In this document: one piece after another, positions 14,482 through 40,189 of the stretch | Numbering within the stretch: position 1 is the stretch's first letter | How the letters are laid out: each line of letters starts with the position of its first letter | Sequence record: OZ035774.1 | Direction: 5' to 3' (one strand) | Source of the DNA: Vectrevirus T147P9 | Length of the DNA stretch: 44,649 bases | Program-made: the position numbers and the translations under genes | The notes under the pieces: model-generated | The model's database searches: none | What the model was told of the DNA's origin: nothing | Seen by the model: only the letters and a program-made list of their open reading frames with translations

Positions 14482-14497
14482 GTCTCACATGTGAGAC
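14482..14497. repeat. 16-bp perfect palindrome GTCTCACATGTGAGAC (copy 1 of 6)
   Basis: Exact palindrome, 2 bp upstream of the promoter at 14500. Confidence 0.9.
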
Positions 14498-14499
14498 TT

Positions 14500-14523
14500 A
14501 TTTACCGGACACTATAGGATAGC
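14500..14523 (+). promoter_or_regulatory. phage RNAP promoter (CCGG variant)
   Basis: atttaccggacactataggatagc. Confidence 0.6.
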
Positions 14524-14664
14524 CGTCGGAGACGGGAAAGAAAGGGAAGATAAAGGATATAAAAGGAAGTAATAGGTATTAAAGGTTATATAGGTTTACC
14601 TAGGAATACCTATTACCTTCTTCCTTCCTCTTATTACTACTTAGAGGAAGGGCAGACCTAAGTT

Positions 14665-14680
14665 GTCTCACATGTGAGAC
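14665..14680. repeat. 16-bp perfect palindrome GTCTCACATGTGAGAC (copy 2 of 6)
   Basis: Exact copy, 5 bp upstream of the promoter-like sequence at 14686. Confidence 0.9.
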
Positions 14681-14685
14681 TTCGT

Positions 14686-14709
14686 ATTTACCGGACAGTA
14701 TAGATAAGA
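14686..14709 (+). promoter_or_regulatory. phage promoter-like sequence (degenerate)
   Basis: atttaccggacagtatagataaga; CAGTATAG instead of CACTATAG; upstream of the gp1.1-like gene. Confidence 0.35.
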
Positions 14710-14733
14710 CTAACTTACTTTGGAGATTTAACC

Positions 14734-14862
14734 ATGCGTAACTTTGAGAAGATGACCCGTAAAGCTAACCGTTTTGACATGGAAGAAGGGCAGACTAAAG
14801 GCAAGAAGCTTAATAAACCTGTCCGCGACCGTGCATCTAAACGCGCTGCGTGGGAGTTCTAA
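14734..14862 (+). CDS. T7 gene 1.1-like small basic protein
   Basis: 42-aa ORF MRNFEKMTRKANRFDMEEGQTKGKKLNKPVRDRASKRAAWEF; recalled T7 gp1.1 begins MRNFEKMT and shares KGxKLNK...RDR; not in track. Confidence 0.7.
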   Translation: MRNFEKMTRKANRFDMEEGQTKGKKLNKPVRDRASKRAAWEF

Positions 14863-14865
14863 GTT

Positions 14866-15087
14866 ATGGCTAAATACAGGATTAAGACGTGTTTAAACAA
14901 TCAGGGGCATGAGTGCTATATAGTACAGCGTAAGGTTCTACTGGGCTTGCTGTGGGTTACTTGTATGATGCCTATTGGCTACACTGACACTGAAGCCATC
15001 TTTGGCACGGAAGATGATGCCTACAGATTCATCGCTAAACGTAGAAAAGTAGAACGTTATAAACACAGAATTATTAAGGTAAACTAA
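14866..15087 (+). CDS. hypothetical protein
   Basis: 73-aa ORF abutting the primase-helicase start; no motif recognised. Confidence 0.5.
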   Translation: MAKYRIKTCLNNQGHECYIVQRKVLLGLLWVTCMMPIGYTDTEAIFGTEDDAYRFIAKRRKVERYKHRIIKVN

Positions 15088-17075
15088 TGGCTATAATCAA
15101 TAACATTCAATGCCCTGCTTGTGCTAAGAACGGGCATGATAAATCCTCTAATCATCTCATGATATTTGATGATGGTGCTGGCTACTGTAATCGTGGACAC
15201 TTTCATGATAATGGTAGACCCTACTACCACAAGCCGGAAGGTGGCATCGAAATCACCGAGCTACCCATCACTGGCAACATCAAATATACACCTTCTCAAT
15301 TCAAAGAAATGGAGAAGGAAGGGAAGATAAGCGACCCTAAGCTACGCGCCATCGCACTTGGTGGTATGCGTATGAAAGACCGTTGGGAGGTTATGAATGA
15401 GCAAGAAAGGGCAGACCAAGAAGCAGAGTGGAAGCTTGATGTTGAATGGTTCCTCACGCTTAAGCGTAAGAACCTTGTATCCCGTCACATTCGAGGTGAC
15501 ATCGCAGCAATGTACGATGTGCGCGTTGGACACGATGAAGAGGGAAGAGTCAACCGTCACTATTATCCACGATATGAAAAGGGTGTGCTTGTTGGAGCAA
15601 AATGCCGGACGTTGCCGAAGGATTTTAAGTTCGGACACCTAGGTAAACTCTTTGGTATGCAAGATCTTTTCGGTATGAACACTTTGTCTCACGTGTTAGA
15701 CAAGGGGAGACGAAAGGATTGCTTGCTTATTGTAGGCGGTGAACTTGATGCACTAGCAGCGCAGCAGATGCTCCTTGATTCTGCCAAGGGTACTAAGTGG
15801 GAGGGTCAGCCATACCATGTATGGTCTGTCAACAAAGGTGAGTCTTGCCTTGAAGAGATAGTGCAGAACCGTGAGCATATCGCCCAATTCAAGAAGATTA
15901 TATGGGGTTTTGATGGAGATGAGGTAGGGCAGAAGCAGAATCAGCAAGCGGCTCGCCTGTTTCCTGGCAAATCCTATATCCTTGAATACCCCTCTGGTTG
16001 CAAAGATGCTAACAAGGCATTGATGGCTGGCAAGGCTAAAGAGTTTGTAGATGCATGGTTTAATGCCAAGTCATCTGATGAAGTCTTTGGTAGCCAGATT
16101 AAATCTATCGCATCTCAAAGGGATAAGCTCAAGGCTGCACGTCCAGAGCAAGGACTATCATGGCCTTGGCCTAAGCTGAACAAGGTAACGCTAGGTATTC
16201 GTAAGAATCAGCTTATCATTGTAGGTGCAGGGTCTGGTGTAGGTAAGACTGAGTTCCTTCGTGAAGTAGTTAAGCACCTCATTGAAGAACACGGTGAATC
16301 TGTAGGCATCATTTCTACAGAAGACCCGATGGTCAAGGTGTCCCGTGCTTTTATCGGCAAGTGGATTGATAAGCGTATTGAGTTACCGCCAACCAACGAC
16401 CCGAAAGAAGATGGATACCGTGAGGTGTTCGACTACACCGAGGAAGAAGCTAACGCCGCCATTGATTATGTAGCTGATACAGGTAAGCTGTTTGTGGCTG
16501 ACCTAGAGGGTGACTATTCGATGGAAAAGGTAGAGCAAACTTGCCTAGAGTTTGAGGCTATGGGCATTTCTAATATCATCATTGATAACTTAACGGGAAT
16601 TAAATTAGATGAGCGTGCTTTTGGTGGGAAGGTTGGTGCACTTGATGAATGCGTCAAGCGGATTGGTACTATCAAAGACCGACACCCGGTTACTATATTC
16701 CTTGTATCACACCTTACACGTCCTCCGGCAAACCGTACCCAACACGAAGAAGGTGGCGAAGTTATCCTTTCTGACTTCCGAGGCTCAGGCGCTATCGGAT
16801 TCTGGGCATCTTACGCCTTGGGGATTGAGCGTAATACAAGAGCTGAAACGCTTGACGAAAGGACTACCACGTACATCTCATGTGTCAAAGACCGCGACCA
16901 AGGTATCTGGACTGGAACCAAGGTCATGCTTAAGGGTGACATTCAAACCGGACGTTTAATGGAACCACAAGCCCGTACTAAGTCATTTGATACAGGTGAA
17001 GCAAGGCAACAAGAAGTGCCGGATTTACCGGACACTATAGAAGAGACAACCTTTGACGATGAACAGGAGTTTTAA
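15087..17075 (+). CDS. DNA primase/helicase (T7 gp4-like)
   Basis: N-terminal Cys4 zinc ribbon (CPACAKNGHDKSSNH...CNRGH), central TOPRIM-like region, Walker A VGAGSGVGKTEF of DnaB-family helicases; acidic C-terminal tail ending EQEF like T7 gp4. Confidence 0.9.
   Translation: MAIINNIQCPACAKNGHDKSSNHLMIFDDGAGYCNRGHFHDNGRPYYHKPEGGIEITELPITGNIKYTPSQFKEMEKEGKISDPKLRAIALGGMRMKDRWEVMNEQERADQEAEWKLDVEWFLTLKRKNLVSRHIRGDIAAMYDVRVGHDEEGRVNRHYYPRYEKGVLVGAKCRTLPKDFKFGHLGKLFGMQDLFGMNTLSHVLDKGRRKDCLLIVGGELDALAAQQMLLDSAKGTKWEGQPYHVWSVNKGESCLEEIVQNREHIAQFKKIIWGFDGDEVGQKQNQQAARLFPGKSYILEYPSGCKDANKALMAGKAKEFVDAWFNAKSSDEVFGSQIKSIASQRDKLKAARPEQGLSWPWPKLNKVTLGIRKNQLIIVGAGSGVGKTEFLREVVKHLIEEHGESVGIISTEDPMVKVSRAFIGKWIDKRIELPPTNDPKEDGYREVFDYTEEEANAAIDYVADTGKLFVADLEGDYSMEKVEQTCLEFEAMGISNIIIDNLTGIKLDERAFGGKVGALDECVKRIGTIKDRHPVTIFLVSHLTRPPANRTQHEEGGEVILSDFRGSGAIGFWASYALGIERNTRAETLDERTTTYISCVKDRDQGIWTGTKVMLKGDIQTGRLMEPQARTKSFDTGEARQQEVPDLPDTIEETTFDDEQEF
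17023..17046 (+). promoter_or_regulatory. phage RNAP promoter inside the 3' end of the helicase gene
   Basis: atttaccggacactatagaagaga. Confidence 0.6.
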
Positions 17076-17236
17076 TGGAAATTATTAAACCAGTATTGAA
17101 TATCGGTATTGAGATCCTATTCATGCTTGTGATCGCAGATTATGCTGCACGATATGGATTCAAGAAAGCTGTGAAACTTATCGTTGCATCTGGTTTTCTT
17201 ATGTCAATGTTCTTTATTGTAACACGCCTTATCTAG
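17075..17236 (+). CDS. hypothetical small membrane protein (two predicted TM helices)
   Basis: 53-aa ORF MEIIKPVLNIGIEILFMLVIADYAARYGFKKAVKLIVASGFLMSMFFIVTRLI; ATG overlaps the helicase stop; not in track. Confidence 0.35.
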   Translation: MEIIKPVLNIGIEILFMLVIADYAARYGFKKAVKLIVASGFLMSMFFIVTRLI

Positions 17237-17253
17237 TGTATTTATCAGGGCTT

Positions 17254-17269
17254 GTCTCACATGTGAGAC
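17254..17269. repeat. 16-bp perfect palindrome GTCTCACATGTGAGAC (copy 3 of 6)
   Basis: Extended context ggcttgtctcacatgtgagacaggctcttatt forms an 11-bp-stem hairpin followed by a U-rich tract. Confidence 0.9.
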
Positions 17270-17308
17270 AGGCTCTTATTAAGTACATTAAATAACTGGA
17301 GATTGATT

Positions 17309-18031
17309 ATGTATAAATTAGTATTGAATGTAGGTGATTATGTTCGTAACATCAATGAAGCCTCACGTCGTTATCGTTGCCGTGGTGTAGTGGCTCGTGT
17401 AAGTGAGAACATGTATCATGTAGAATATGAGGATGGTATTAAGGCTTCTTACCACAAGAAAACAGCACATAAATATCTTGAAAAGATTGTAGAGATAAAC
17501 AATCAATGTAAGTGCATACATGATGAGGTTTGCGATAAGTGTGCACGTCAGGCAGTTAAAGCCTTTACCTTTGCTCAACGTTATGGTTCTATGTATGGCG
17601 CTGGTCACAAGACCCTTGCAGAAGCAGCTTGGAAGACATTACAGTTTGAGCGTTCAAATGGACGACGCACCACAATTAAGAAAGAGCGCCGCAATGTAAT
17701 CACTGGTAAGACTCAAAGTGAAATGATTAAGCAATGTGGCACTGCACTAGGTGTTACGCAGTTTAACACTCGTGCTCTTGGTAAATCCACAGGACAAGCT
17801 ATGGTAAAGATTGGCGAAGCCATGATGCATCCAAATGTACCTGTACGAATCAGGGATGTTGACCATGCAATCACAGAACACGGTACGCAACGACGTGTAA
17901 TTAATAAGCATTTTGCCGACACTATAGAAGGTATTATTCGTAAGCAAGGGTTGAAAGGTCTTCACATCTTGAATGATGAAGAGTTACTGTACCTCCCTAT
18001 TGTTACTGAAGAAACCTACGTGAATATCTAA
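17309..18031 (+). CDS. hypothetical protein
   Basis: 240-aa ORF (ATG 17309; track TTG 17303); Cys cluster CKCIHDEVCDKC; contains an internal promoter-like sequence. Confidence 0.6.
   Translation: MYKLVLNVGDYVRNINEASRRYRCRGVVARVSENMYHVEYEDGIKASYHKKTAHKYLEKIVEINNQCKCIHDEVCDKCARQAVKAFTFAQRYGSMYGAGHKTLAEAAWKTLQFERSNGRRTTIKKERRNVITGKTQSEMIKQCGTALGVTQFNTRALGKSTGQAMVKIGEAMMHPNVPVRIRDVDHAITEHGTQRRVINKHFADTIEGIIRKQGLKGLHILNDEELLYLPIVTEETYVNI
17910..17933 (+). promoter_or_regulatory. phage promoter-like sequence (variant) inside a CDS
   Basis: attttgccgacactatagaaggta. Confidence 0.4.
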
Positions 18032-18041
18032 GGAGTTAATC

Positions 18042-18260
18042 ATGACTAAAGTATTAATTTATATGCGTGGACCTCATAAATGCTATGCAGTTGTAGCACC
18101 AAATGGTGTTAAGCCCTATAGTACTTCAAAAGGATTGGCATTAATAGGTGCTAGTAGTAGTGCAAGTTTCCAAATGGAACTTTTTGGTCATTGGAATGAA
18201 AGGCAATTCCGTGAGGATTTTAAAGTCATTGGCAGCTTCATGGTGAAACATGCAGAATAA
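18042..18260 (+). CDS. hypothetical protein
   Basis: 72-aa ORF with AAGGAG RBS. Confidence 0.5.
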   Translation: MTKVLIYMRGPHKCYAVVAPNGVKPYSTSKGLALIGASSSASFQMELFGHWNERQFREDFKVIGSFMVKHAE

Positions 18261-18426
18261 ACATAGTCTTAAAATGTTCGATGGTCATGAAGACCTGCAA
18301 GCCAAGATTACTAACCAAGCCTTCCTGTTTGCACAGTTAACCATGGCTGAAGCAAAGAAGAATAGCCTGACGCGTGAACAGGTTATCAAGGAAAGTGAAG
18401 TGAAACGTAAGATTCGCAGTCGATAA
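18250..18426 (+). CDS. hypothetical protein
   Basis: 58-aa ORF MQNKHSLKMFDGHEDLQAKITNQAFLFAQLTMAEAKKNSLTREQVIKESEVKRKIRSR overlapping the previous stop; not in track. Confidence 0.3.
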   Translation: MQNKHSLKMFDGHEDLQAKITNQAFLFAQLTMAEAKKNSLTREQVIKESEVKRKIRSR

Positions 18427-18436
18427 GTCAAGGGTT

Positions 18437-18452
18437 GTCTCACACGTGAGAC
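18437..18452. repeat. 16-bp palindrome variant GTCTCACACGTGAGAC (copy 4 of 6)
   Basis: One symmetric change (ACGT centre) keeps it palindromic; context gggttgtctcacacgtgagacagcctttc. Confidence 0.85.
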
Positions 18453-18553
18453 AGCCTTTCATCATATTGATTGGAGGATTAACTTTATGAATAACTACGA
18501 CTCTGATTGGGATTTCTACGATTCAATGCAATCTAAACCAGAAAGGAGGGAGG

Positions 18554-19033
18554 ATGAGTTCGAAACAGATCAAATGTACGAGGATTTTTACTAACTACAT
18601 CCTCTACTCTGATGGTCGAGTTCTTAACGAGAAAACCGGACAATATCTAAGAGGTTACTTAGATAAAGATGGGTATCATATTATGAATATTAAAGGGAAA
18701 CACCTTAAAGTTCATCGATTAGTTGCTATCCATTTCATACCTAACCCTAATAATTTACCTGAAGTTAACCATAAAGATCATGACCGTCTAAACAATAATG
18801 ATTGGAATCTAGAGTGGTGTACTCATCAAGATAACAATAAGCATAGCTTACATTTAGTAATAGCTTCTTGTGCTAAACGCTATGACTTTATATCACCACA
18901 AGGTGTCCATGTAGAAGTCTATAACTTACGTGAGTTTTGTAGGAATAACAACCTACAGCAATCTCATATGGTTAAGGTGGCTAAAGGTAAAGTAAGACAT
19001 CATAAAGGTTGGACTAATTATGCTAGATGTTGA
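18554..19033 (+). CDS. HNH homing endonuclease
   Basis: VHRLVAIHFIPNPNNLPEVNHKDHDRLNNNDWNLEWCTHQDNN is an HNH motif paralogous to the ORF at 331..774; immediately upstream of and overlapping the DNA polymerase start. Confidence 0.75.
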   Translation: MSSKQIKCTRIFTNYILYSDGRVLNEKTGQYLRGYLDKDGYHIMNIKGKHLKVHRLVAIHFIPNPNNLPEVNHKDHDRLNNNDWNLEWCTHQDNNKHSLHLVIASCAKRYDFISPQGVHVEVYNLREFCRNNNLQQSHMVKVAKGKVRHHKGWTNYARC

Positions 19034-21530
19034 TTGGAAAGAATTTGGAAAGAATCGCATACTTGTCATGGATGCTGAAAGTAAAGGTTTGCTTGATGCC
19101 ATACGCTATGGTCATCGTGAAGATGTGCACATCATTTGCTGCATGGACTTGCTCACCACTGAGGAGTTCCTATTCTTCGACCCGTATGAGATGCGTGACC
19201 CTGAAGCAAGAGAACGCCTAAAAGAATGGGAAGGCCATCAAGATGGAACATTGGTTGACGGTGTTAACTTCCTTAAGCACTGCGAAGCCATCGTCTCACA
19301 GAACTTCCTAGGGTACGACGGCCTTCTATTTGAGAAAGCATTCCCTGATATATGGAAAGGCTTTAATTATACAGAGAAGCGTGGCAAGGGCAGGCTCCGT
19401 GCCGACCTGTGTCCTGTGCGAGTCATGGACACGCTGGTGATGAGCCGCCTGTTAAACCCTGATAGACGCCTCCCTCCGCAAGCATACGCCAAAGGCATGG
19501 GTAACGTCGCCCCTCACTCAATTGAGGCGCACGGCATCCGTATAGGCCGTTATAAGCCGGAGAATGAGGACTGGTCTAAGCTAACTGACCACATGGTTCA
19601 CCGTGTACGGGAGGACGTGGCGATTGGTCGTGACTTGTTCCTCTGGCTCTTTAACGGGGAATGGATGGAGCACAAACGCCGTGGCGTGAATAAACGCACT
19701 GGCCTAGGTATTGAGACAGCCTTCCACATGGAGTCCATTGTGGCGCTGGAGATGAGCCGTCAGGCCGAGCGCGGGTTCCGTCTGGACATCGACAAAGCTT
19801 TGGCCCGATGCGAAGAATTGGACGCTAAGATTGACGAGACAGTCGCAGCGTTCCGCCCTCACATGCCTATGCGTATCAAGTCTAAACCTTTTAAACCGGA
19901 AGAAAAGAATGAAGTATGCCAACGCGCAAATGAGTATGGAGCTAGCAACAATATACCTACTGTCCTTGACCCCTCACACTTTCTTCATGCCGAGAGACGA
20001 GGAGATCGCAAGACAGTATGGAGTGTCACTACTAAGTCTGGTGATTGGTCGGCTAGTGTCAAGAAAGACTTTCCTCACCTTAGAGGAAGCCGTAATGACA
20101 CGCCAAGCATCAAGTGGATTGGCGCTTACTCGCCTGTTACTTTCGAAGAGATTCCCTTGGGTAACAGGGATACAGTTAAGCAAGTACTCTATGATTATGG
20201 ATGGAAAGGTGTTGAATTTAACGATACCGAGCAAGCGCATCTCGATGAGCACGGAGTGTTACCCAAACCTTGGAGTGGTAAGATAAATGAAAAGTCCCTT
20301 ACTTTATGGCAAGAAAGAGCCGCACGTGAAGGTAAAACAGTCCCTGATTGGTGCTTGGGTATCGCTGCATGGTACATACTCGTATCCCGTCGTGGTCAGA
20401 TACTCAACCGTGGTGACGTTGAAGCCTTCAACGAGAAGGGAACGTGGCCCTCGCAGGCTGGTGTACGAAAGTGTCGCGGCCTTGTACCTGTAGCATTCAA
20501 CAAGGAGCTAGGAATCAATGCGCAGCAATACTACGAGAGGTACGGATGTTGGCCTACGTCTGACAAAGATGACGGAGAGTGGCGTGTGCCAGGCAATGCT
20601 GTTACTATTGGCACTAATACGTTCCGTATGCGTCATCGTAATATTGTTAATATCCCTTCCCGTGGATTGTATCCTCTGCGTGATTTATTCATAGCTAGCA
20701 AGGGTAAAATGATACTCGGATGTGATGGAGCGGGGCTTGAGCTTCGCATCTTAGCCCATTTCATGGGTGATCCTGAGTATATTGATATTGTCTTGAATGG
20801 CGATATTCACTCGCACAACCAAGCGAAGGCTGGATTGCCCTTACGTGACACTGCGAAAACATTTATCTACGCTTTTCTCTACGGTTCTGGCATACCAAAC
20901 CTTGCTGCGGTATGTGGCATGACTGAAGCACAGATGAAAGAATGTGTCGCTCGCTTTGAAGTAGAGCTACCTCACTTAGCTAAACTTAAGGAGGGAGTGG
21001 AATCTGCTGCTTCACAATTTGGGTACATGCACGCGGTAGATGGGCGCTGGGGTCGTGTACGCGTTAGCAATGGTGAGATTAAGATTCACACTTGTCTAAA
21101 CGTATTACTTCAGATGACTGGCTCCCTCACTATGAAGTACTCAAAAGTGAAAGCACTGGCTACCATGCGTAAAGAGGGCGTAGCCCTTGATGCAAATGGT
21201 AATCCAGCAATGCTTGTTGACTACCATGATGAATGGCAGATGGAAGTACCTGAAGACGAAGTGTTAGAAATTCGCTACTCTATTCCTTCCTCTGAATGGA
21301 AAGAAGAAGAGAAAAGACAGTATCGTGACAGTGATGGACGCATGTGGTCTGCACCTAAGGTTGTGGAAGGTAATCCTAAAGAAGACGAGACGATCACAGT
21401 ACGTCGTCGTTACCATCGTGCAGGTGAGATTTTAGCTGAATCTATTACATGGGCTGGAGAATACCTCAAGCTACGTATTCGAATGGATGGTGAATATATG
21501 CTTGGATATTCATGGGCTGAAACGCACTAA
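19020..21530 (+). CDS. DNA polymerase (family A, T7 gp5-like)
   Basis: 836 aa; motif A DGAGLELRILAHF, motif B RDTAKTFIYAFLYGSG, motif C HDEWQMEV; N-terminal 3'-5' exonuclease-like region. Confidence 0.9.
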   Translation: MLDVDWKEFGKNRILVMDAESKGLLDAIRYGHREDVHIICCMDLLTTEEFLFFDPYEMRDPEARERLKEWEGHQDGTLVDGVNFLKHCEAIVSQNFLGYDGLLFEKAFPDIWKGFNYTEKRGKGRLRADLCPVRVMDTLVMSRLLNPDRRLPPQAYAKGMGNVAPHSIEAHGIRIGRYKPENEDWSKLTDHMVHRVREDVAIGRDLFLWLFNGEWMEHKRRGVNKRTGLGIETAFHMESIVALEMSRQAERGFRLDIDKALARCEELDAKIDETVAAFRPHMPMRIKSKPFKPEEKNEVCQRANEYGASNNIPTVLDPSHFLHAERRGDRKTVWSVTTKSGDWSASVKKDFPHLRGSRNDTPSIKWIGAYSPVTFEEIPLGNRDTVKQVLYDYGWKGVEFNDTEQAHLDEHGVLPKPWSGKINEKSLTLWQERAAREGKTVPDWCLGIAAWYILVSRRGQILNRGDVEAFNEKGTWPSQAGVRKCRGLVPVAFNKELGINAQQYYERYGCWPTSDKDDGEWRVPGNAVTIGTNTFRMRHRNIVNIPSRGLYPLRDLFIASKGKMILGCDGAGLELRILAHFMGDPEYIDIVLNGDIHSHNQAKAGLPLRDTAKTFIYAFLYGSGIPNLAAVCGMTEAQMKECVARFEVELPHLAKLKEGVESAASQFGYMHAVDGRWGRVRVSNGEIKIHTCLNVLLQMTGSLTMKYSKVKALATMRKEGVALDANGNPAMLVDYHDEWQMEVPEDEVLEIRYSIPSSEWKEEEKRQYRDSDGRMWSAPKVVEGNPKEDETITVRRRYHRAGEILAESITWAGEYLKLRIRMDGEYMLGYSWAETH

Positions 21531-21539
21531 GGAGGTTTA

Positions 21540-21905
21540 ATGAGAACGGAACGCAAAGCAGCTAACTACCGGAAAAGGTGCGAAGACATGCCGTTCCATA
21601 TGTACAATATTGCTAAACGTAGTGATGCACGTAAGAAGTGTATACCTTATAACTTAGACTCTACCTATTTAGAAAGCATCTGGACAGGGATATGTCCTGT
21701 GTTCGGTATTCCTCTTAATGTACCATTGAAAGAGGCTAAAGGGCGAGGATCTTGTCATACGGCACACCTTGACAGAATTAACCCTAAGTTGGGTTATGTG
21801 AAAGGTAATGTAGCATGGTTAAGTGGACGAGCTAATCGCATCAAATATGATGCTAGTCTGGAAGAGTTGGAGGCACTTCTTCTTTGGATGAAATCACAGC
21901 ATTGA
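21540..21905 (+). CDS. HNH endonuclease
   Basis: 121 aa with CPVFGIPL...SCHTAHLDRINPKLGYVKGNVAWLSGRANRIK (His-Asn-His pattern); directly after the DNA polymerase gene. Confidence 0.7.
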   Translation: MRTERKAANYRKRCEDMPFHMYNIAKRSDARKKCIPYNLDSTYLESIWTGICPVFGIPLNVPLKEAKGRGSCHTAHLDRINPKLGYVKGNVAWLSGRANRIKYDASLEELEALLLWMKSQH

Positions 21906-21962
21906 GTTATACTCAAGGTCACTTACGAGTGGCCTTTATGAATAACTTAACTGGAGAGTATT

Positions 21963-22223
21963 ATGATTAAATCACAGAAGTATTTCTCAACTAAAGATCG
22001 TAAGGTAGGTTTTGAAATCAAAGTTTGGGAAGACGGACACATTACTATTATTTACGAAGGTAAAGGTTCTAATGGTATGATGCTACGTAGATTCCGTACT
22101 TTCACAAAGAAAGAATGTATGCATATGTCTGAATGCATGTTTCTTTACATCATTGCTGATGATATTAAAGGTATGAAGCTAATTGTATCTCTACCTTTAA
22201 TACCTAAATCTTTGTTAGGTTGA
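21963..22223 (+). CDS. hypothetical protein
   Basis: 86-aa ORF with GGAGAG RBS. Confidence 0.5.
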   Translation: MIKSQKYFSTKDRKVGFEIKVWEDGHITIIYEGKGSNGMMLRRFRTFTKKECMHMSECMFLYIIADDIKGMKLIVSLPLIPKSLLG

Positions 22224-22246
22224 TTTACTGGACACTATAGAAGGAA
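22223..22246 (+). promoter_or_regulatory. phage RNAP promoter (consensus copy)
   Basis: atttactggacactatagaaggaa. Confidence 0.75.
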
Positions 22247-22765: not shown

Positions 22766-23572
22766 ATGGCACGTGGTGATTTTGATTTTGGTGCTCAGGT
22801 TACTAAAGCTGAAGGTAAGGTTTTTAAGAACCCTGAAGTTGGTGATCATGAAGCAGTAATCTCTGGCATCATTCATGTGGGTTCCTTCCAAGATATCTTT
22901 AAGAAAGGCAATACCACTGAAGTTAAGAAGCCAGCAAACTTTGTTCTTGTTAAGATTGTCCTGATGGGTGACGATGACAAGAACGAAGATGATTCTCGCA
23001 TGGAACAGTGGATGGCTGTGCCTCTGAAGTCTGGTGACAAGGCAACCTTGACTAAGTTCCTGAATGCAGTTGATCCTAAAGAACTGCTGGGTGGCTTCGA
23101 TGACTTCATCGGTGAATGCCTGACTGCAACTATGGTTGGCTCTGGTGACAAGAATGACGATGGTTCATTCAAGTATGTTAACTGGAAAGGATTCGGTGGT
23201 ATGCCTGACAAGCTTAAGAAACTTGTCATTGCTCAGGTTGAAGAAGAGGGTCTGTCTATGACAGGTCACATCACCTTCGACAAGCTGACCAAAGAAATCC
23301 TTGATGACATTCCTGCTAACTTGGTACGCCAATACTTCCTGAATGAAACGCCTCGTGGTAAGAACCTGTCTGTTGCTGGCTCTCATGTAGAAGCAATCAT
23401 TAAATCTGCTCGTGAAGAAGACCCAGAGTGGAAGAAGGCCAAGAAGAAAGATGATGAGGATGCCACTCCAGCTAATCGTAAATCTCTGGACACTGGTGAG
23501 TCTGTTCCGCAGGAAGTACCTGAAGCAGAAGATACGCCTGCACCGGAGATGGATGAGGACGCAGAATATTAA
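22766..23572 (+). CDS. putative ssDNA-binding protein (gp2.5-like acidic C-terminal tail)
   Basis: 268 aa, strong RBS and promoter, codon usage of an abundant protein; acidic C-terminal tail ending in Tyr (EMDEDAEY) as in T7 gp2.5. Function inferred, not shown. Confidence 0.4.
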   Translation: MARGDFDFGAQVTKAEGKVFKNPEVGDHEAVISGIIHVGSFQDIFKKGNTTEVKKPANFVLVKIVLMGDDDKNEDDSRMEQWMAVPLKSGDKATLTKFLNAVDPKELLGGFDDFIGECLTATMVGSGDKNDDGSFKYVNWKGFGGMPDKLKKLVIAQVEEEGLSMTGHITFDKLTKEILDDIPANLVRQYFLNETPRGKNLSVAGSHVEAIIKSAREEDPEWKKAKKKDDEDATPANRKSLDTGESVPQEVPEAEDTPAPEMDEDAEY

Positions 23573-23801: not shown

Positions 23802-23817
23802 GTCTCACATGTGAGAC
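23802..23817. repeat. 16-bp perfect palindrome GTCTCACATGTGAGAC (copy 5 of 6)
   Basis: Exact copy, 15 bp upstream of the promoter at 23833. Confidence 0.9.
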
Positions 23818-23832: not shown

Positions 23833-23856
23833 ATTTACTGGACACTATAGAAGAGA
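23833..23856 (+). promoter_or_regulatory. phage RNAP promoter (consensus copy)
   Basis: atttactggacactatagaagaga. Confidence 0.75.
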
Positions 23857-32040: not shown

Positions 32041-32086
32041 AAATGTCTCCCTAAATTATCAATTTGATTTATAAGGAGGTTTATTA

Positions 32087-33292: not shown

Positions 33293-33300
33293 TACCTATG

Positions 33301-33333
33301 CCCTATCTACCCTGCGTAGGTAGGGTTCTTTTT
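33301..33333 (+). terminator. late terminator after the capsid gene (T-phi analogue)
   Basis: ccctatctac-cctgc-gtaggtaggg (10-bp stem with one G-U) followed by ttcttttt, 9 bp after the capsid stop. Confidence 0.7.
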
Positions 33334-33346
33334 GTTAGGAGGGTTC

Positions 33347-34084
33347 ATGCCTGTAATTAGACAAACCAGTAAAGTAGGACATATGATGGAAGATGTGGCC
33401 TTCCAGATTATTGATAGTAAGCTGGAAGCGGTAAACTTGTGTATGCGAGCTATTGGTCGTGAGGGTGTGGATTCTCTCGACTCAGGTGACTTGGACGCAG
33501 AAGACGCAAGCAAGATGATCGACATCGTATCCCAGAGGTTCCAGTACAACAAAGGAGGTGGCTGGTGGTTCAATCGTGAACCAAACTGGCAGATTGCACC
33601 TGATACCAATGGTGAAGTCAACTTACCTAACAACTGCCTAGCAGTGTTGCAGTGTTACGCTTTGGGCGAGAAGAAAGTACCAATGACTATGCGAGCAGGT
33701 AAGCTCTACTCTACTTGGAGTCACACCTTTGATATGCGTAAGCATGTGAATGCTAATGGTATGATTCGTCTTACCTTACTCACCTTACTTCCATATGAGC
33801 ATCTACCTACAAGTGTAATGCAGGCTATTGCCTATCAAGCTGCTGTAGAGTTTATTGTGTCTAAGGATGCAGATCAGACTAAGTTAGCCACTGCACAGCA
33901 GATTGCCACTCAGCTTCTTATGGATGTGCAATCAGAACAAATGTCACAAAAACGATTGAATATGCTTGTGCATAATCCTACGCAGCGTCAGTTCGGTATT
34001 ATGGCGGGTGGTTCTCAGAATGCACCTGCTTACTCTCATTCACCCTATGATAGTTGGACCCTTCGTCCGTGGGAGGATCGGTAA
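33347..34084 (+). CDS. tail tubular protein A (gp11-like)
   Basis: 245 aa (ATG 33347 after GGAGGG RBS; track TTG 33332); first gene after the capsid terminator. Confidence 0.75.
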   Translation: MPVIRQTSKVGHMMEDVAFQIIDSKLEAVNLCMRAIGREGVDSLDSGDLDAEDASKMIDIVSQRFQYNKGGGWWFNREPNWQIAPDTNGEVNLPNNCLAVLQCYALGEKKVPMTMRAGKLYSTWSHTFDMRKHVNANGMIRLTLLTLLPYEHLPTSVMQAIAYQAAVEFIVSKDADQTKLATAQQIATQLLMDVQSEQMSQKRLNMLVHNPTQRQFGIMAGGSQNAPAYSHSPYDSWTLRPWEDR

Positions 34085-36486
34085 TGGAAGTACAAGGTTC
34101 ATTAGGGCGGCAAATACAAGGGATTAGCCAGCAGCCGCCAGCGGTACGCTTGGATGGTCAGTGCACAGCTATGGTTAATATGATACCTGATGTAGTGAAT
34201 GGTACTCAATCACGCATGGGTACAACTCATATTGCAAAGATACTTGATGCGGGGACTGATGACATGGCTACTCATCATTATCGCAGAGGTGATGGTGATG
34301 AAGAGTATTTCTTCACGTTGAAGAAAGGACAAGTTCCTGAGATATTTGATAAGTATGGGCGCAAATGTAATGTGACTTCACAAGATGCACCTATGACTTA
34401 CTTAACTGAAGTAGTCAACCCAAGGGAAGATGTGCAATTTATGACTATTGCAGATGTAACCTTTATGCTTAATCGAAGAAAGGTAGTTAAAGCTCGTACT
34501 GATAAATCACCAAAGGTTGGAAATAAGGCGATTGTCTTCTGCGCCTATGGCCAATATGGGACTACTTATAAAATTATAATTGATGGCAATGTAGCAGCTA
34601 CACGTACCACCCCTGACGGTGGTGAAGCGGGTCAAGTTGTAAATATAAGAACAGAAGACATTACAAACCACCTTTATGATAGTTTACAGCAATGGAGTGG
34701 TATTAATGCCTACAACATCCAGAAAGATGGAACAAGTATCTTTATTGAAAAGAAAGATGGTAGCTCTTTTAATATTACTACAGAAGATGGTGCAAAAGGT
34801 AAGGACTTAGTAGCCATAAAGAACCGTGTAGCCTCTACCGACCTTCTACCCTCCCGTGCACCTGAAGGTTACAAAGTGCAAGTATGGCCTACTGGAAGTA
34901 AACCGGAGTCACGTTATTGGCTGGAAGCAGAGCCAAAAGAGGGGAATTTAGTATCATGGCAAGAGACAGTAGCGGCGGATGTTTTACTTGGCTTTGATAA
35001 AGGGACCATGCCGTATATTATTGAGCGTACAGGTATCATTGATGGTATTGCTCAATTTAAGATTAGGCAGGGTGACTGGGAAGACCGCAAGGTGGGGGAT
35101 GACCTCACTAACCCTATGCCGTCTTTCATTGATGAAGAAGTTCCTCAGACAATTGGCGGAATGTTCATGGTGCAGAACCGTTTATGCTTTACAGCAGGTG
35201 AAGCTGTCATTGCATCACGCACTTCCTACTTCTTTGATTTCTTTCGTTATACGGTTATCTCTGCATTGGCAACTGACCCATTTGATATTTTCTCAGATGC
35301 TAGTGAAGTCTACCAGCTAAAACATGCAGTGACCTTAGATGGCGCTACCGTGTTGTTCTCTGATAAGTCACAATTCATACTGCCAGGCGATAAGCCTTTA
35401 GAGAAGTCAAATGCACTGCTTAAGCCTGTTACAACATTTGAAGTGAACAATAAAGTGAAGCCAGTAGTAACTGGTGAATCGGTAATGTTTGCCACTAATG
35501 ATGGTTCTTACTCTGGTGTACGAGAGTTCTATACAGACTCTTATAGTGACACTAAGAAGGCACAAGCAATCACAAGTCATGTGAATAAACTCATCGAAGG
35601 TAACATTACCAACATGGCAGCAAGCACCAATGTCAACAGGTTACTTGTCACTACCGATAAGTATCGTAACATAATCTACTGCTACGATTGGTTATGGCAA
35701 GGAACAGACCGTGTACAATCAGCATGGCATATATGGAAGTGGCCTATAGGTACAAAGGTGCGAGGTATGTTTTATTCTGGTGAATTACTTTACCTGCTCC
35801 TTGAGAGAGGAGATGGCGTATATCTGGAGAAGATGGACATGGGTGATGCACTAACCTACGGTTTGAATGACCGCATCAGAATGGATAGGCAAGCAGAGTT
35901 AGTCTTCAAGTATTTTAAAGCAGAAGATGAATGGATGTCTGAACCTCTTCCTTGGACCCCTACTAACCCAGAGCTTTTGGATTGCATCTTAATAGAAGGA
36001 TGGGATTCATATATTGGTGGTTCTTTCCTATTCAAATACAACCCCGGTGATAACACCTTGTCTACAACCTTTGATATGCATGATGATAGCCACGTAAAAG
36101 CGAAGGTTATTGTTGGTCAGATTTACCCTCAAGAGCTTGAACCAACACCTGTAGTTATCAGAGATAGGCAAGACCGTGTATCCTATATTGATGTACCTGT
36201 TGTGGGATTAGTTCACCTTAATCTTGATATGTATCCTGATTTCTCCGTGGAGGTTAAGAATGTGAAGAGTGGTAAAGTACGCAGGGTGCTAGCGTCAAAC
36301 CGTATAGGTGGTGCTCTCAACAATACAGTAGGTTATGTTGAACCAAGAGAAGGTGTCTTCAGATTCCCGCTGAGAGCTAAGAGTACGGATGCTGTTTATC
36401 GTATTATTGTAGAATCACCTCACACATTCCAGCTTCGTGATATTGAGTGGGAAGGGAGCTACAATCCAACCAAAAGGAGGGTCTAA
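34084..36486 (+). CDS. tail tubular protein B (gp12-like)
   Basis: About 800 aa (ATG 34084 overlapping the previous stop, GGAGGA RBS); size and position match T7 gp12. Confidence 0.75.
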   Translation: MEVQGSLGRQIQGISQQPPAVRLDGQCTAMVNMIPDVVNGTQSRMGTTHIAKILDAGTDDMATHHYRRGDGDEEYFFTLKKGQVPEIFDKYGRKCNVTSQDAPMTYLTEVVNPREDVQFMTIADVTFMLNRRKVVKARTDKSPKVGNKAIVFCAYGQYGTTYKIIIDGNVAATRTTPDGGEAGQVVNIRTEDITNHLYDSLQQWSGINAYNIQKDGTSIFIEKKDGSSFNITTEDGAKGKDLVAIKNRVASTDLLPSRAPEGYKVQVWPTGSKPESRYWLEAEPKEGNLVSWQETVAADVLLGFDKGTMPYIIERTGIIDGIAQFKIRQGDWEDRKVGDDLTNPMPSFIDEEVPQTIGGMFMVQNRLCFTAGEAVIASRTSYFFDFFRYTVISALATDPFDIFSDASEVYQLKHAVTLDGATVLFSDKSQFILPGDKPLEKSNALLKPVTTFEVNNKVKPVVTGESVMFATNDGSYSGVREFYTDSYSDTKKAQAITSHVNKLIEGNITNMAASTNVNRLLVTTDKYRNIIYCYDWLWQGTDRVQSAWHIWKWPIGTKVRGMFYSGELLYLLLERGDGVYLEKMDMGDALTYGLNDRIRMDRQAELVFKYFKAEDEWMSEPLPWTPTNPELLDCILIEGWDSYIGGSFLFKYNPGDNTLSTTFDMHDDSHVKAKVIVGQIYPQELEPTPVVIRDRQDRVSYIDVPVVGLVHLNLDMYPDFSVEVKNVKSGKVRRVLASNRIGGALNNTVGYVEPREGVFRFPLRAKSTDAVYRIIVESPHTFQLRDIEWEGSYNPTKRRV

Positions 36487-37208
36487 TGGCTATAGGTTCA
36501 GCCGTTATGGCTGGTATGTCTTCTATTGGTAGTATGTTTGCAGGCAGCGGTGCAGCAGCCGCTGCTGGAGGTGCTGCCGCAGGTGGCGGAGGCTTGCTAG
36601 GTTCTCTAGGTGGCTTCCTAGGCGGCTCTACTGCTGGCTTCTCTAATGCTGGGCTTCTTGGTGCTGGCCTTCAAGGTTTAGGCTTGATTGGTGATCTCTT
36701 TGGTGGAAGTGATGAAGCCAAGGCAATGAAGAAAGCACAAGAAGAACAGTGGCGGCAGCAACTTATTGCTACACAAGAAGCATACAAAACAGTAGCAGAT
36801 GCAGAGCGTTCTGCTGCTAAACAATATCATGCAGATGCAATAAGCAATCAGGCTTCACTACTACAGCAGCGAGCACAGGTTGCATTACTAGCAGGTGCTA
36901 CTGGTACTGGTGGTAACTCTGTATCTTCTATGCTGAATGACTTAGCAGCAGAGGGCGGGAGGAACCAGAGTACAATTATTGATAACTATGAGAATCAGAA
37001 GATTAACTTCACCAATCAGCTTAAGTCTATCCAGCGAGGTGGACAGATGCAGATGCGTGAGTTTAAGAAGCCTTCTGCCGTAAGTACCTTGGTGCAAGGT
37101 ATTCCAAGTCTGGCTTCTGCTTATGTAACTGGTAGCAAGTCGGGCATGGCTTTAGGTAAAGCTCTAACGGATTCTCGTACATATTCATCTGGAACAAGAG
37201 GTATTTAA
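36486..37208 (+). CDS. internal virion protein (Gly/Ala-rich, gp13/gp14-class)
   Basis: 240 aa (ATG 36486, AAGGAGGG RBS); Gly/Ala-rich N-terminal segment typical of small internal core proteins. Confidence 0.6.
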   Translation: MAIGSAVMAGMSSIGSMFAGSGAAAAAGGAAAGGGGLLGSLGGFLGGSTAGFSNAGLLGAGLQGLGLIGDLFGGSDEAKAMKKAQEEQWRQQLIATQEAYKTVADAERSAAKQYHADAISNQASLLQQRAQVALLAGATGTGGNSVSSMLNDLAAEGGRNQSTIIDNYENQKINFTNQLKSIQRGGQMQMREFKKPSAVSTLVQGIPSLASAYVTGSKSGMALGKALTDSRTYSSGTRGI

Positions 37209-40156
37209 TGGCAATTGAGCGACAAGCAGTACAAGGCCTGCCACAAGTGCAGGCCACTTCTCCTAATGTCATGACCTTTGCACCTCAGCAAGTTGGAGGT
37301 GTGGAGGCTGGCGTAGCTTCTACCTCCGGTAGTCGATTTATCGAAGACCTTATTCGAGCAGCCAGTAGTGTAGCTGATGTTACCACGGGTATCCTTAATC
37401 AGAAGATTGAGGAGGATAAGGTTGTTCAAATGGAACGGGCATATAATGGATTAATGCCTTCTGAGGATGCAACTCGTGGTGGCGCTCGTGCTAACATGCT
37501 TGTCAAAGCTCAACTGCTAGCTAATGATGAAGCAGCACGAATGAAAGACATGGCTACTCGTTTCCAAGGAACAGATGACGAGTGGACACAACTCATGGTT
37601 GACTCTCGTAATGAGATGCAGAATAAACTGTTCCAGCAATACCCTGAGTTGCAAGGTGACAAAGATACTATGCGTATGGTCACTAATGTCTTCCAAGAAC
37701 AGCAGCCTCAGATTTGGGCTACACGAACCCAGCATAAACTTGACCGCGAACAAGCAGACCGTGAGGATACCTTTGACGGGCGAGTGGCTTCTACTTGGGA
37801 TTCTAGTATTGACCCCGAAGCTTCTGGTTATGCCCTACAGGAGCGAATCCGCGAGGGATTTACTCAAGGACTATTACCTGAGCAGATGCATAAGAAGCTG
37901 GTAGAGCGAGCTATTTCACTTGCTCAGGGTGGTGATATTAGCATGGCTGAAGCCTTGAAGTACGTGAAGGACGATAAGGGTGTTTCTGTCTATGCTAAGA
38001 ATCCGCAGCTTATCACAGCTATCACTAATGGTAATGCAGTTTGGGCTAGGAATAATGTTGCTGATGTGACTCGCATGTCTTTTGAAGTCAAAGAGTCCTA
38101 TCTTGCAGGTGACTTGACGGATGAAGAATTACTGGAGCGAGCACAGCACATTAATAGCCTGACAGGAAACTCTGTCTTCTCTAATCCAGAACTAGAAGCA
38201 CTGATGCGCCAACGAGCTAAGCAGAATGCAGAGCTAGGTGCAATGCAGGATATGCGACGTGAACTTTACTCTGATCGCATGACTGGCTTCCAAGGTAAGA
38301 CAGATAAAGAGAAGAAAGCCTACATTGATGTTATCAAACAGGATAGCCAACTATATGCAGACCAGCAAATCAAACAACGTGGCTTGGACCCTTACAGTCA
38401 AGAGGCTGAAGCTATTCGTGGTGCAGTGGAAGTGCAGCGCCTGCAATTCATGAACTCCAAAGGCTTAGTGGATGACACCTTTGAGTCTCGTATCAAAGCC
38501 ATGGAGTCTATGCTATCACCTGAGCACTTCGCTAAAGGAGAACCACAGGAGTTAATGACTATTCGTCAGTTGTGGGAACAGTTACCAGAAGAAAGCCGAG
38601 GTGTCTTTGGTGATACGGTGAATGGCTATATGGATAACTACAACACTGCATTACAAATGGGAGAGACGCCCTTGCAGGCTGCAAGGTTTGCCCGTGAAGC
38701 ACAGCAGAAATTCTCTCGTACTGAGAAAGAAACCAAGAAGTTCAACTCAGCTATTGGAGATGCACTGGATGAGGTATCTGGTGCTGGCTGGTTTGATGGT
38801 AAAACCGAAGTGTCCGACTTAGGTAAAGCTATTGCAGAAGAAGAGTTACGAGCTAAGGCCAATATGCTGTGGTCTAGCGGTATGCGTAACATGGATTCCA
38901 TCAAGAAGGCTTTAATTACTTGGGGCAATAAACGCTACACTCAATCAGAGGATGCAAAGACTTCCGGTGGTTATTTCATTAAAGGTGATTACACTTCTGC
39001 ATCTGACATGCTTATGTCTGTTGGGAAAGGTGTAAACCCTACCGATGTACCTCTGGCGCTTGGTAGGTATGTAGAGACACAAATGCCAGAATTGAAGAAG
39101 GAACTTCAAGAGTGGGAAACTAAGGATGATGTATACATTGATTACAATGAGCAGAAAGGTACTTTCGTGATTCGTGCTGGTGCAGCAGGTCGCCCTCTTT
39201 CTGGAGTAATCCCTGTCACCTCTTTAGATACCACTTCACTACTAGACTCTGCCTATCAGAAGAAAGTAGAAGAACGAGATAAAGGTGAATATGTTCACCC
39301 ATATCGTACAGATATCGGTGCACAAGAACCTATGCCAGCTAAGCCAACTGCCAAGGATATTGGTAAATTTGGACTAGCTAATTTCCTCATGTCTTCTGCC
39401 TTTGCTTCTGGTGAGAATCTACCTTCTAACTTCGAGATTAACTATAGAGGCAACATGCAACAATTCTATGACAAGCTAGCTATGGATGAGAATGGCGATA
39501 AGCTGGGCTTCAACAAAGCCACAGGAACCTTCACACCGTACAAAGATGCACATGGCGAGTCTGTAGGCTACGGTCACTTCCTTACGGAAGAAGAAAAGAG
39601 AAATGGGTACATTAAGATTGGTGACGAACTAGTTCCGTATCGCGGCTCTATGTCTCAGCTCACTGAGAGTAAGGCCCGTGCTCTTATGGAACAAGATGCC
39701 AAGAAGCATGTACCTCCAACTCGTGATTGGAAAATCCCATTCGACCAGATGCATCCGGCACAGCAGCGCGGTTTAATGGATTTAACCTATAACTTAGGTA
39801 AAGGTGGAATCCAGAATGCACCGCGTGCTCTTGCTGCATTCAAGGCAGGTAAGCTTACAGAAGGCTTTATCGAAATGCTGGGTACTGCATCCAGTGAAGG
39901 TAAGCGTATTCCTGGTTTACTGAAGCGACGCGCTGAGGCTTACAATATGGCATCTGCCGGTGGTGTACCTAAGATTACCGAAGTAGAGACTCGTGAAGAT
40001 GGGTCTATGTGGGTTAAGTTCGGCGGACCTATGCCAGCAGGTTCTGTATCTGCATGGACTCATAAACGTATTGGCGCTGATGGCTGGTATCAGGTTTATG
40101 AGGCTGCACCTACCAAGTTAGCTAAAGGCTCTAAGGTAGGTAAAGTTAAGTTGTAG
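37208..40156 (+). CDS. internal virion (ejectosome) protein with C-terminal T4-lysozyme-like (GH24) domain
   Basis: 982 aa; C-terminal TPYKDAHGESVGYGHFL and QRGLMDLTYNLGKGG...GKRIPGLLKRRAEAYNM resemble T4 lysozyme segments (YKDTEGYYTIGIGHLL; ALINMVFQMG...RAKRV). Confidence 0.75.
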   Translation: MAIERQAVQGLPQVQATSPNVMTFAPQQVGGVEAGVASTSGSRFIEDLIRAASSVADVTTGILNQKIEEDKVVQMERAYNGLMPSEDATRGGARANMLVKAQLLANDEAARMKDMATRFQGTDDEWTQLMVDSRNEMQNKLFQQYPELQGDKDTMRMVTNVFQEQQPQIWATRTQHKLDREQADREDTFDGRVASTWDSSIDPEASGYALQERIREGFTQGLLPEQMHKKLVERAISLAQGGDISMAEALKYVKDDKGVSVYAKNPQLITAITNGNAVWARNNVADVTRMSFEVKESYLAGDLTDEELLERAQHINSLTGNSVFSNPELEALMRQRAKQNAELGAMQDMRRELYSDRMTGFQGKTDKEKKAYIDVIKQDSQLYADQQIKQRGLDPYSQEAEAIRGAVEVQRLQFMNSKGLVDDTFESRIKAMESMLSPEHFAKGEPQELMTIRQLWEQLPEESRGVFGDTVNGYMDNYNTALQMGETPLQAARFAREAQQKFSRTEKETKKFNSAIGDALDEVSGAGWFDGKTEVSDLGKAIAEEELRAKANMLWSSGMRNMDSIKKALITWGNKRYTQSEDAKTSGGYFIKGDYTSASDMLMSVGKGVNPTDVPLALGRYVETQMPELKKELQEWETKDDVYIDYNEQKGTFVIRAGAAGRPLSGVIPVTSLDTTSLLDSAYQKKVEERDKGEYVHPYRTDIGAQEPMPAKPTAKDIGKFGLANFLMSSAFASGENLPSNFEINYRGNMQQFYDKLAMDENGDKLGFNKATGTFTPYKDAHGESVGYGHFLTEEEKRNGYIKIGDELVPYRGSMSQLTESKARALMEQDAKKHVPPTRDWKIPFDQMHPAQQRGLMDLTYNLGKGGIQNAPRALAAFKAGKLTEGFIEMLGTASSEGKRIPGLLKRRAEAYNMASAGGVPKITEVETREDGSMWVKFGGPMPAGSVSAWTHKRIGADGWYQVYEAAPTKLAKGSKVGKVKL

Positions 40157-40173
40157 TACCTAACTCAAGGCTT

Positions 40174-40189
40174 GTCTCACATGTGAGAC
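40174..40189. repeat. 16-bp perfect palindrome GTCTCACATGTGAGAC (copy 6 of 6)
   Basis: Context ggcttgtctcacatgtgagacaggtctttatg is near-identical to copy 3 including the U-rich tail. Confidence 0.9.

Follow-up and report, generated by a model that had tools for sequence, protein, structure and literature searches.

What holds one 16-bp palindrome constant at scattered positions of a T7-like phage genome, and what would read it there? The question is raised by Vectrevirus T147P9 (sequence record OZ035774.1), whose 44,649 nucleotides, called here the window, constitute a complete, circularly permuted Vectrevirus genome (K1E/K1-5-like; SP6 group, T7 supergroup). By comparison with the K1-5 ends, its terminal repeat lies at 8493-8727, and it contains 13 K1-5-type phage promoters, all on the + strand. 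The repeated palindrome has the core form GTCTCAC-NN-GTGAGAC. The reading that we favour, with somewhat better than even confidence, is that this core would be an operator, or a parS-like site, of a gp6-like early protein, a candidate dimer encoded by the early open reading frame (ORF) directly upstream of the RNA polymerase (RNAP) gene (10794-11717, + strand; K1E gp6 / SP6 gp7 family, PHROG 4571). The binding, the dimeric state and the regulatory consequence of this protein are what we infer from the comparison of sequences.

Eight Sites in the Phage Genome

The exact sequence GTCTCACATGTGAGAC is found five times, at 14482, 14665, 17254, 23802 and 40174, against a chance expectation of 0.00 in 100 dinucleotide-preserving shuffles. 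The repeat noticed in the original prediction is real, but it had been counted as six exact copies: the one at 18437 is GTCTCACACGTGAGAC, which was said to be still palindromic and whose reverse complement, GTCTCACGTGTGAGAC, differs from it, only the 7-nt arms being complementary around a non-palindromic AC centre. Besides the six copies then listed, two degenerate ones exist, at 9067 (GTCTCACATGTTAGAC) and 15686 (GTCTCACGTGTTAGAC). The claim that the palindrome is always intergenic holds for those six and fails for the missed copy at 15686, which lies inside the primase/helicase ORF. Six of the eight sites are placed either within ~4 kb downstream of the end of the RNAP gene or in the early region.

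Three exact copies, referred to as class A, adjoin phage promoters at the distances originally reported. The first (14482-14497), without flanking complementarity, ends 2 nt upstream of the promoter ATTTACCGGACACTATAGGATAG (14500-14522, + strand); the second (14665-14680) is 5 nt upstream of the promoter at 14686-14708 (+ strand); and the third (23802-23817), 2 nt past the gp17 stop codon, precedes by 15 nt the promoter at 23833-23855 (+ strand). Only these 3 of the 13 phage promoters have a palindrome upstream. Three further copies, referred to as class B, are extended by flanking complementarity into hairpins with 13-bp stems on the + strand: one at 17247-17276 (core 17254-17269, CAUG loop), between gp9.5 and gp10; one at 18430-18459 (core 18437-18452, centre AC), upstream of the inserted HNH gene and the DNA polymerase gene; and one at 40167-40196 (core 40174-40189), between the internal virion protein genes gp35 and gp36. 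The coding copy occupies 15686-15701 in the primase/helicase ORF (15087-17075), where it is read as the codons L-S-H-V-L-D. Finally, the left-end copy (9067-9082), with one perfect half-site, GTCTCAC, and one GTCTAAC, is located 340 nt to the right of the terminal repeat and precedes by 35 nt the -35 element of the first strong sigma70-type early promoter (TTGACA-17-TACTAT, 9117-9145, + strand).

The original prediction had proposed a search of related genomes, and all eight sites have orthologues in K1E, K1-5, ACG-C91 and SP6; the left-end copy corresponds to K1E 632, K1-5 559 and SP6 493, and the copies at 23802 and 40174 to SP6 14255 and 30569, respectively. The palindrome was not found in T7, even with up to three mismatches allowed. 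Regulatory annotation is absent at the palindrome sites in the GenBank records of SP6, K1-5, K1E and ACG-C91, and cmscan of the whole window against Rfam, with E up to 10, returned zero matches at any copy. The statement that this is not a described element can thus be upheld for the searchable literature and Rfam, a scope outside which two SP6/K1-5 genome papers lie.

Conservation of the Core

That the core is conserved as nucleotide sequence can be seen in the coding copy. A perfect palindrome at 15686 would give an in-frame TGA stop, and this is why the Vectrevirus helicase copy uses TTA; in SP6-like phages, the helicase gene encodes the perfect motif of its own lineage. Among 23 diverged helicase genes, none of the synonymous third-codon positions that fall on motif positions 1, 7, 10 and 16 ever varies, while positions 4 and 13 vary solely between T and C and between A and G, as the lineage motif itself does. 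Gene-wide, 8.9% of conserved degenerate codons are invariant and the mean third-position entropy is 0.88 bits. The helicase coding copy is under nucleotide-level selection. Further copies of the palindrome are located inside the RNAP genes of relatives.

The conservation of the sequence goes further than structure would demand. The same core is also met at non-orthologous places in SP6-supergroup contigs so distant that their RNAP is ~40% and their helicase 44-55% identical to that of the window. Its positions there include the stretch between the capsid gene and a true terminator, sites immediately before ribosome-binding sites (RBSs) or next to phage promoters that are quite different, and the interior of RNAP genes. 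The version of the core is particular to the lineage: GTCTCAC..GTGAGAC in Vectrevirus, and GTCTAAC..GTTGGAC or GTCCAAC..GTTGGAC in SP6-like phages. The lineage represented by contig L136 carries a 17-nt version, GTCCAACA[C/G]TGTTGGAC, at three of three sites, with the central base in either orientation. The copies of a genome thus evolve in concert.

An RNA-level element has to be weighed here, namely, the hairpin GUCUCA-CRYG-UGAGAC, read by a sequence-specific RNA-binding factor, or by the phage RNAP as a pause or termination signal, and controlling read-through, processing or stability of the mRNA. We consider it unlikely. The two halves of the core vary independently of each other. Hybrids that RNA pairing does not tolerate (C5/T12, C4/A13, A5/G12) break the 6-bp stem in 14 of the 68 distinct non-extended contexts (class A, coding and left-end), versus none of the 33 extended hairpins (Fisher p = 0.004), and half-site hybrids occur in both orientations, T4..G13 and C4..A13. 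Furthermore, the arms are conserved and the central 2 nt vary (AT, AC, GT, GC). Conserved arms with a variable centre are the pattern of a dimer on DNA, the opposite of the usual recognition of RNA by proteins that read the loop. The frozen synonymous sites of copies inside translated ORFs, and the position of the left-end copy, after the terminal repeat and before the first early promoter that can be recognised, argue in the same direction. Altogether, the properties of the core fit a two-fold symmetric reader of duplex DNA, and fit poorly either a purely structural hairpin or a loop-reading RNA-binding protein.

Hairpins, Terminators and Processing Sites

As RNA, the copies differ in their folding. 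The three extended copies (17254, 18437, 40174) form 13-bp stems closed by a 4-nt loop, with free energies of -17.6 to -19.7 kcal/mol and z scores of -4.9 to -6.4, in agreement with the flanking complementarity first reported for them. The promoter-proximal copies (14482, 14665, 23802) amount to the 6-bp core, at about -7 kcal/mol and z of -1.4 to -2.0, and the copy at 9067 folds poorly, at -2.7 kcal/mol; the weakness of the last two groups is also at odds with an RNA-level element. In an alignment of 33 distinct extended-hairpin versions taken from relatives, 97% of the cells are paired, six pairs have changed on both sides, and the covariation score reaches 0.44 versus 0.20 in shuffled alignments (none of 500 shuffles attains 0.44). 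Two positions are dominated by G.U pairs, which exist only on the sense strand and would be A.C on the other. Because of this covariation and of the sense-strand-only G.U pairs, the copies at 17254, 18437 and 40174 are real RNA-level hairpins. The 7-bp extension covaries freely, and the core sequence is kept.

The pairing of the extended copies is an argument for an RNA-level element, together with three others: the 1-nt loop insertion of the L136 lineage is easily accommodated by a hairpin; the intergenic copies all follow closely on a stop codon or closely precede a promoter, an RBS or a true terminator; and the RNAP, conserved throughout the group, is itself a candidate reader.

A second alternative is that the copies are intrinsic terminators or attenuators defined by structure only, and alike through descent from one duplicated hairpin followed by slow stem evolution or gene conversion; we give it little probability. 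The class B stems are stable, and the sequence after them is moderately rich in U; a stable, G+C-rich hairpin of the terminator type is formed by 17254, 18437 and 40174, and not by 14482, 14665, 23802 and 9067. The terminator or attenuator hairpin formerly considered for the whole set is supported at the three extended copies only, by their covariation and their sense-strand G.U pairs. The U-rich tract described after them turns out to be only moderate (UCUUAUUAAG, UUUCAUCAU, UCUUUAUGAU), and an uninterrupted U-run directly after the stem was not seen in these tails or in AAAUCGG. A loose terminator scan passes only 14482 and 14665, owing to the ATTTA of the adjoining promoter (hairpin plus TTATTTA). 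In SP6, seven terminators for the phage RNAP were counted in a 2024 paper, with start sites as near as 14 bp (PMC11347151), a minimal spacing that suits a palindrome abutting a promoter. The one terminator assayed there, t5, lies after the capsid gene and is a hairpin of conventional type, unlike the palindrome (PMC11347151); some extended palindromes may be among the other six. Against terminators of structure only stand the free covariation of the extension beside a core that does not covary, and the presence in five distant relatives (L004, L012, L015, L044, L110) of a separate conventional terminator downstream of the core, which would make the latter redundant. Moreover, most copies have no U-tract, copies exist inside ORFs and upstream of the first promoter, and new, non-orthologous copies arise with the same sequence.

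RNA processing of the RNase III type, another role initially suggested, is not supported. RNase III sites of T7 are hairpins that measure some 20 bp or more and contain internal loops, and R1.1 is located between phi1.1A and phi1.1B. The phage hairpins resemble these sites, and the Tphi terminator, in being placed between genes and often next to phage promoters, but their stems of 6 or 13 bp are too short and too regular (at most 13 bp, with a tetraloop), U-runs of the Tphi type are absent, and T7 is without the motif. Two long imperfect hairpins, at 10528-10598 and ~14563-14650, just downstream of the promoters at 10519 and 14500, fit better and can be regarded, by analogy with T7 R1.1, as candidate RNase III processing sites.

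A Candidate Reader Protein

The gp6-like gene is present in every motif-bearing SP6-supergroup contig for which that region is available, and in one of them (L054) two copies of the palindrome flank it. In T7, neither a gp6-like protein nor the palindrome was found. The protein consists of an N-terminal helical domain with a helix-turn-helix (HTH)-like segment (FGIKKAQCYKLMSVARVF) followed by an acidic linker. Its AlphaFold2 model is weak (pLDDT 58) and displays a helical N-terminal domain and a long helix at residues 207-250 (numbering from the ORF start at 10785), which could possibly be a dimerisation element; fold searches were not decisive. Scans of Pfam, NCBIfam and PHROGs gave no functional assignment for the gp6-like protein or for its actinobacterial homologues described below, and zero matches to a ParB/Srx (CTP-binding) domain were obtained with Pfam and NCBIfam in either.

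Two observations concern this gene in itself. In a distant contig (L074), the palindrome GTCTCACGCGTGAGAC occurs at 2645, within the gp6-like gene (2459-3121). The conserved C-terminal segment of the window protein (APMLPQFKSSCFYARLGLSAEEATKKTAVNRARRELVKLGYGEGH, 11480-11717) resembles, on visual inspection, a J-domain without the HPD motif, a likeness for which Pfam gives no support.

Two other ORFs were considered as readers and set aside. The gp16-like ORF (22766-23572) has an acidic C-terminal tail ending in an aromatic residue (...EMDEDAEY), which suggests, by analogy with T7 gp2.5, a single-stranded DNA-binding protein. The gp10-like ORF (17309-18031) evolves fast, with 37-48% identity between Vectrevirus and SP6-likes compared with 76-91% for RNAP and helicase; it carries a conserved Cys4 motif (CxC-x6-CxxC) and a weak Tudor-like N-terminus, and its homologue was not found in the distant motif-bearing loci sampled.

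Homologues Beside the Palindrome in Bacterial Elements

Two high-GC contigs without relation to the phage came up in a scan of IMG/VR for the palindrome. In the first (L027, 129 kb), three exact palindromes, carried on long GC-rich hairpins, flank the gene of a ParA-type ATPase (matching AAA_31/CbiA/ParA) and a partner ORF. In the second (L091, Bailinhaonella thermotolerans), three exact copies and a fourth near-copy of GTCTCACGCGTGAGAC lie just beyond a partner ORF, and a fragment beside this ORF gives a ParA-like match that is weak and partial (VirC1, E 0.012, which is below the Pfam cut-off). Both partner ORFs match zero Pfam families, and share with the gp6-like N-terminal domain the HTH-like segment (pairwise BLASTP E 4e-6 and 5e-4).

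Several searches point to the same relationship. A jackhmmer search started from the phage domain over 8290 ORF segments recovered the phage family and then the L091 ORF alone, and the L091 family profile run back over the 8290 ORFs found gp6-like proteins only. The L091 protein, which has 40 representatives in 1.8 billion proteins, gives a family profile that hhalign aligns with the phage family at 94.9% probability (E 4.6e-8, 107 columns). The gp6-like N-terminal domain is homologous to proteins encoded beside an identical palindrome elsewhere. The occurrence of the palindrome next to homologous HTH-like proteins and ParA genes, in bacteria without a single-subunit RNAP, weighs also against an RNA-level element.

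Bacterial loci with the palindrome (n=120) are mostly chance singletons, and the family matches in two of the 120: in a Streptomyces locus (L229) and in a metagenome-assembled genome (MAG) of Deltaproteobacteria (L239), the palindrome is within 100 bp of a family gene. Elsewhere, a Patescibacteria MAG (L197) contains four palindromes in 700 bp (5020-5734), several contigs of the same bins each having a copy, and a Bacteroidaceae MAG (L181) has three in tandem, 22 bp apart (2108-2167).

Likeness to Known Systems

Dispersed palindromes with a cognate protein are of an already known kind, exemplified by KorB, ParB and the phiC31 repressor. The KorB-OB system of IncP plasmids and ParB-parS likewise have a multi-copy palindrome of 13-16 bp, with some copies near promoters at varying distance and some intragenic, read by a dimeric HTH protein encoded on the same replicon, a position for which the gp6-like protein is, on sequence grounds, the candidate here. 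As in ParB-parS, the phage sites are short and dispersed and include an intragenic copy under selection. In the actinobacterial loci (L027, L091, L229), a homologue is encoded on the same element and has the identical palindrome on its flanks; its neighbour is a ParA-type ATPase gene in L027 and the weak partial ParA-like match in L091. Unlike ParB systems, the phage is a strictly lytic member of the T7 supergroup without obvious need for partition, a ParB/Srx (CTPase) domain is undetected in the candidate, and ParA is unseen in the phage. Compared with what we take to be the parS and OB consensus sequences, the palindrome appears to be neither. Likewise, the half-sites of the host sites SlmA SBS, DeoR, matS, parS and CRP are, as we presume, arranged differently.

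A bolder version of the preferred reading, which we put forward tentatively and regard as rather doubtful, is that K1E gp6 / SP6 gp7 would define a new family of orphan ParB-like centromere-binding proteins in lytic phages of the SP6 supergroup, whose 16-bp site would be near-unchanged from actinobacterial phage or plasmid partition cassettes; in the lytic phage, the protein would have been re-used as a genome-wide early regulator or organiser. The sites would then cluster at a probable origin, and the protein might mark the DNA for the start of replication, shut down or insulate specific promoters, or recruit host factors by its C-terminal domain.

The genome of phiC31 (L119) offers a second comparison. 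It carries 16 copies of ccTACTCACGTGAGTAgg, which shares with the palindrome the half-site core CTCAC/GTGAG. These conserved inverted repeats (CIRs) are reportedly operators of the repressor. They occupy the same contexts as the phage sites, directly before RBSs, near promoters and at the apex of terminator-like hairpins such as the one at 34783, so that operator-like repeats on terminator stems are seen in phiC31 and in L027 as at the three extended sites of the phage. With respect to the CIR consensus TACTCACGTGAGTA, which it does not match, the palindrome has an extra 2-bp centre and different outer bases, and phiC31 is temperate whereas the window phage is lytic. Tblastn found no homologue of the phiC31 c repressor in the window or related loci, gp6-like hidden Markov models had zero matches among phiC31 ORFs, and the high-GC loci are not relatives of phiC31. 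In mycobacteriophage L5, stoperators are repressor sites dispersed in many copies in short intergenic regions and able to stop elongation. The phage sites are likewise multiple and dispersed, but stoperators are asymmetric, orientation-dependent and bound by a temperate immunity repressor, whereas the palindromes are two-fold symmetric and belong to a lytic phage.

The PeSL elements of T4-type phages are composite motifs, formed by a terminator and a sigma70 early promoter, that are thought to mediate recombination (PMC4122927). Here too, a phage promoter is immediately preceded by a stem-loop, which is found repeatedly at module boundaries and has moved as a unit, in the prophage cassette described below. 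Such likeness leads to a further alternative, to which we assign hardly more than a slight chance: the reader would be a host protein, or the palindromes would be recombination or mobility hot spots at module boundaries, as PeSL cassettes are in T4. A hairpin-plus-promoter cassette of ~65 bp has been moved into lambdoid prophages, HNH genes adjoin the palindrome in the window (18554) and in contig L025, and class B sites are sometimes swapped between lineage types. The PeSL comparison itself gives a divided result: three of the eight copies adjoin phage promoters and the cassette was transferred to prophages, but only 3 of the 13 promoters have the palindrome, copies are not restricted to promoters or variable regions, some being promoter-free or intragenic, and it is sequence, not structure, that is conserved. 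A host reader is difficult to reconcile with phages of closely related hosts (E. coli, Salmonella) that have different site versions, and with the spacing changed at all sites of L136. As for hot spots, HNH genes are not systematically near palindromes and 16 bp is very short for homologous exchange. The frozen synonymous sites are left unexplained by either idea.

An association with HNH endonucleases was rejected on the same grounds, an HNH gene adjoining the palindrome only in the window and L025. Type IIS GTCTC sites, primase GTC sites and MazF ACA sites were dropped as unsupported.

A Possible Dispersed Operator System

Among the roles first proposed for the 16-nt core, an operator for a dimeric protein is the best supported, by the half-sites, the coding copy, the position of the copy at 9067 and the existence of a candidate protein. 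A dimer of the gp6-like protein would read the core symmetrically, half-site by half-site, as double-stranded DNA, using its N-terminal HTH-like domain for contact and possibly the long helix 207-250 for dimerisation. Its binding sites, about eight in all, would be the one ahead of the first early host-type promoter, the two that adjoin the tandem phage promoters following the RNAP gene, the one next to the promoter at 23833, the copy within the primase/helicase gene and the three at gene ends. The whole would constitute a dispersed operator or parS-like system in the fashion of KorB-OB or ParB-parS. At promoter-proximal sites, the bound protein might modulate initiation or block read-through; alternatively, it might organise the DNA or mark it for replication. 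By analogy with T7, the tandem-promoter region after the RNAP gene is a likely replication origin, and the cluster of sites there may be tied to replication. At the three sites extended by 7 bp on each side, the 13-bp hairpins of the sense strand would act as weak terminators, attenuators or stabilisers of 3′ ends built around an operator.

Several findings weigh against this reading. Selection at the RNA level is clear at the three extended copies, and an RNA role must accordingly be granted to part of the family. Palindrome arrays exist in Patescibacteria (L197) and Bacteroidaceae (L181) with no detectable family member nearby, and a scan of the window ORFs against Pfam and PHROGs brought no ParA-type ATPase to light. 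Depending on the lineage, palindrome and promoter are separated by anything from 0 to 15 bp, and this range speaks against a single, precise contact with RNA polymerase. The concerted 1-bp change in half-site spacing of L136 is unusual for a dimeric HTH protein. Finally, some Vectrevirus genomes have an SP6-type core, at class B sites only (K1-5 9570, ACG-C91 31564, L124 3222); the reader therefore either tolerates both versions or is dispensable there.

Significance

Regulation in T7-like phages is, in textbook terms, achieved almost wholly by promoters, RNA polymerase switching and RNase III. If our reading is correct, dispersed sequence-specific operators would be a layer of control unrecognised in these phages, with its own early DNA-binding protein, with sites in essential genes and with sites fused to hairpins. 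It would also provide a function for a conserved hypothetical early gene (PHROG 4571) and for an uncharacterised partner of ParA in bacterial mobile elements. To our knowledge, such a system, with an uncharacterised protein family and sites in essential genes, is undescribed in a strictly lytic phage of the T7 supergroup. The defined pair of a 16-bp site and a protein is directly testable and could become an orthogonal DNA-binding part.

Prophage Cassette and Other Observations

The cassette alluded to above is found in lambdoid prophages of 632 out of 5426 complete E. coli genomes, between terminase/DUF1441 and iss(bor)/lysis genes; it can be seen at 4750-4960 of L048 and at ~3560-3900 of L150 (a prophage of E. 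coli MS 85-1). Its elements are, in order, the hairpin ggcttGTCTCACACGTGAGACaagcc, a 14-nt interval, a phage promoter of perfect K1-5 type (ATTTACTGGACACTATAGAAGGACAG), an RBS and an ORF of 40 aa that is conserved (MFHSTSHQAVIMAASVCATDLFRFTLSLIHFYLTGSPLSF); likeness to the phage is confined to the ~65 bp of hairpin and promoter. An infecting Vectrevirus may turn on the cassette gene through its RNA polymerase, and the frequency of the cassette suggests that prophages may listen for the polymerase of these phages.

From the terminal repeat to the first early promoter, the window carries an array of short CTTAGT(G/A) repeats (8727-9110), which resembles the short repeats flanking the T7 terminal repetition. 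Genes of the HNH/endonuclease type are located at 18554-19033, 184-774 and 21540-21905 and are not present at the matching K1-5 or SP6 positions; from this distribution, they are probably free-standing homing endonuclease insertions. The first of them lies 100 bp downstream of the hairpin at 18437.

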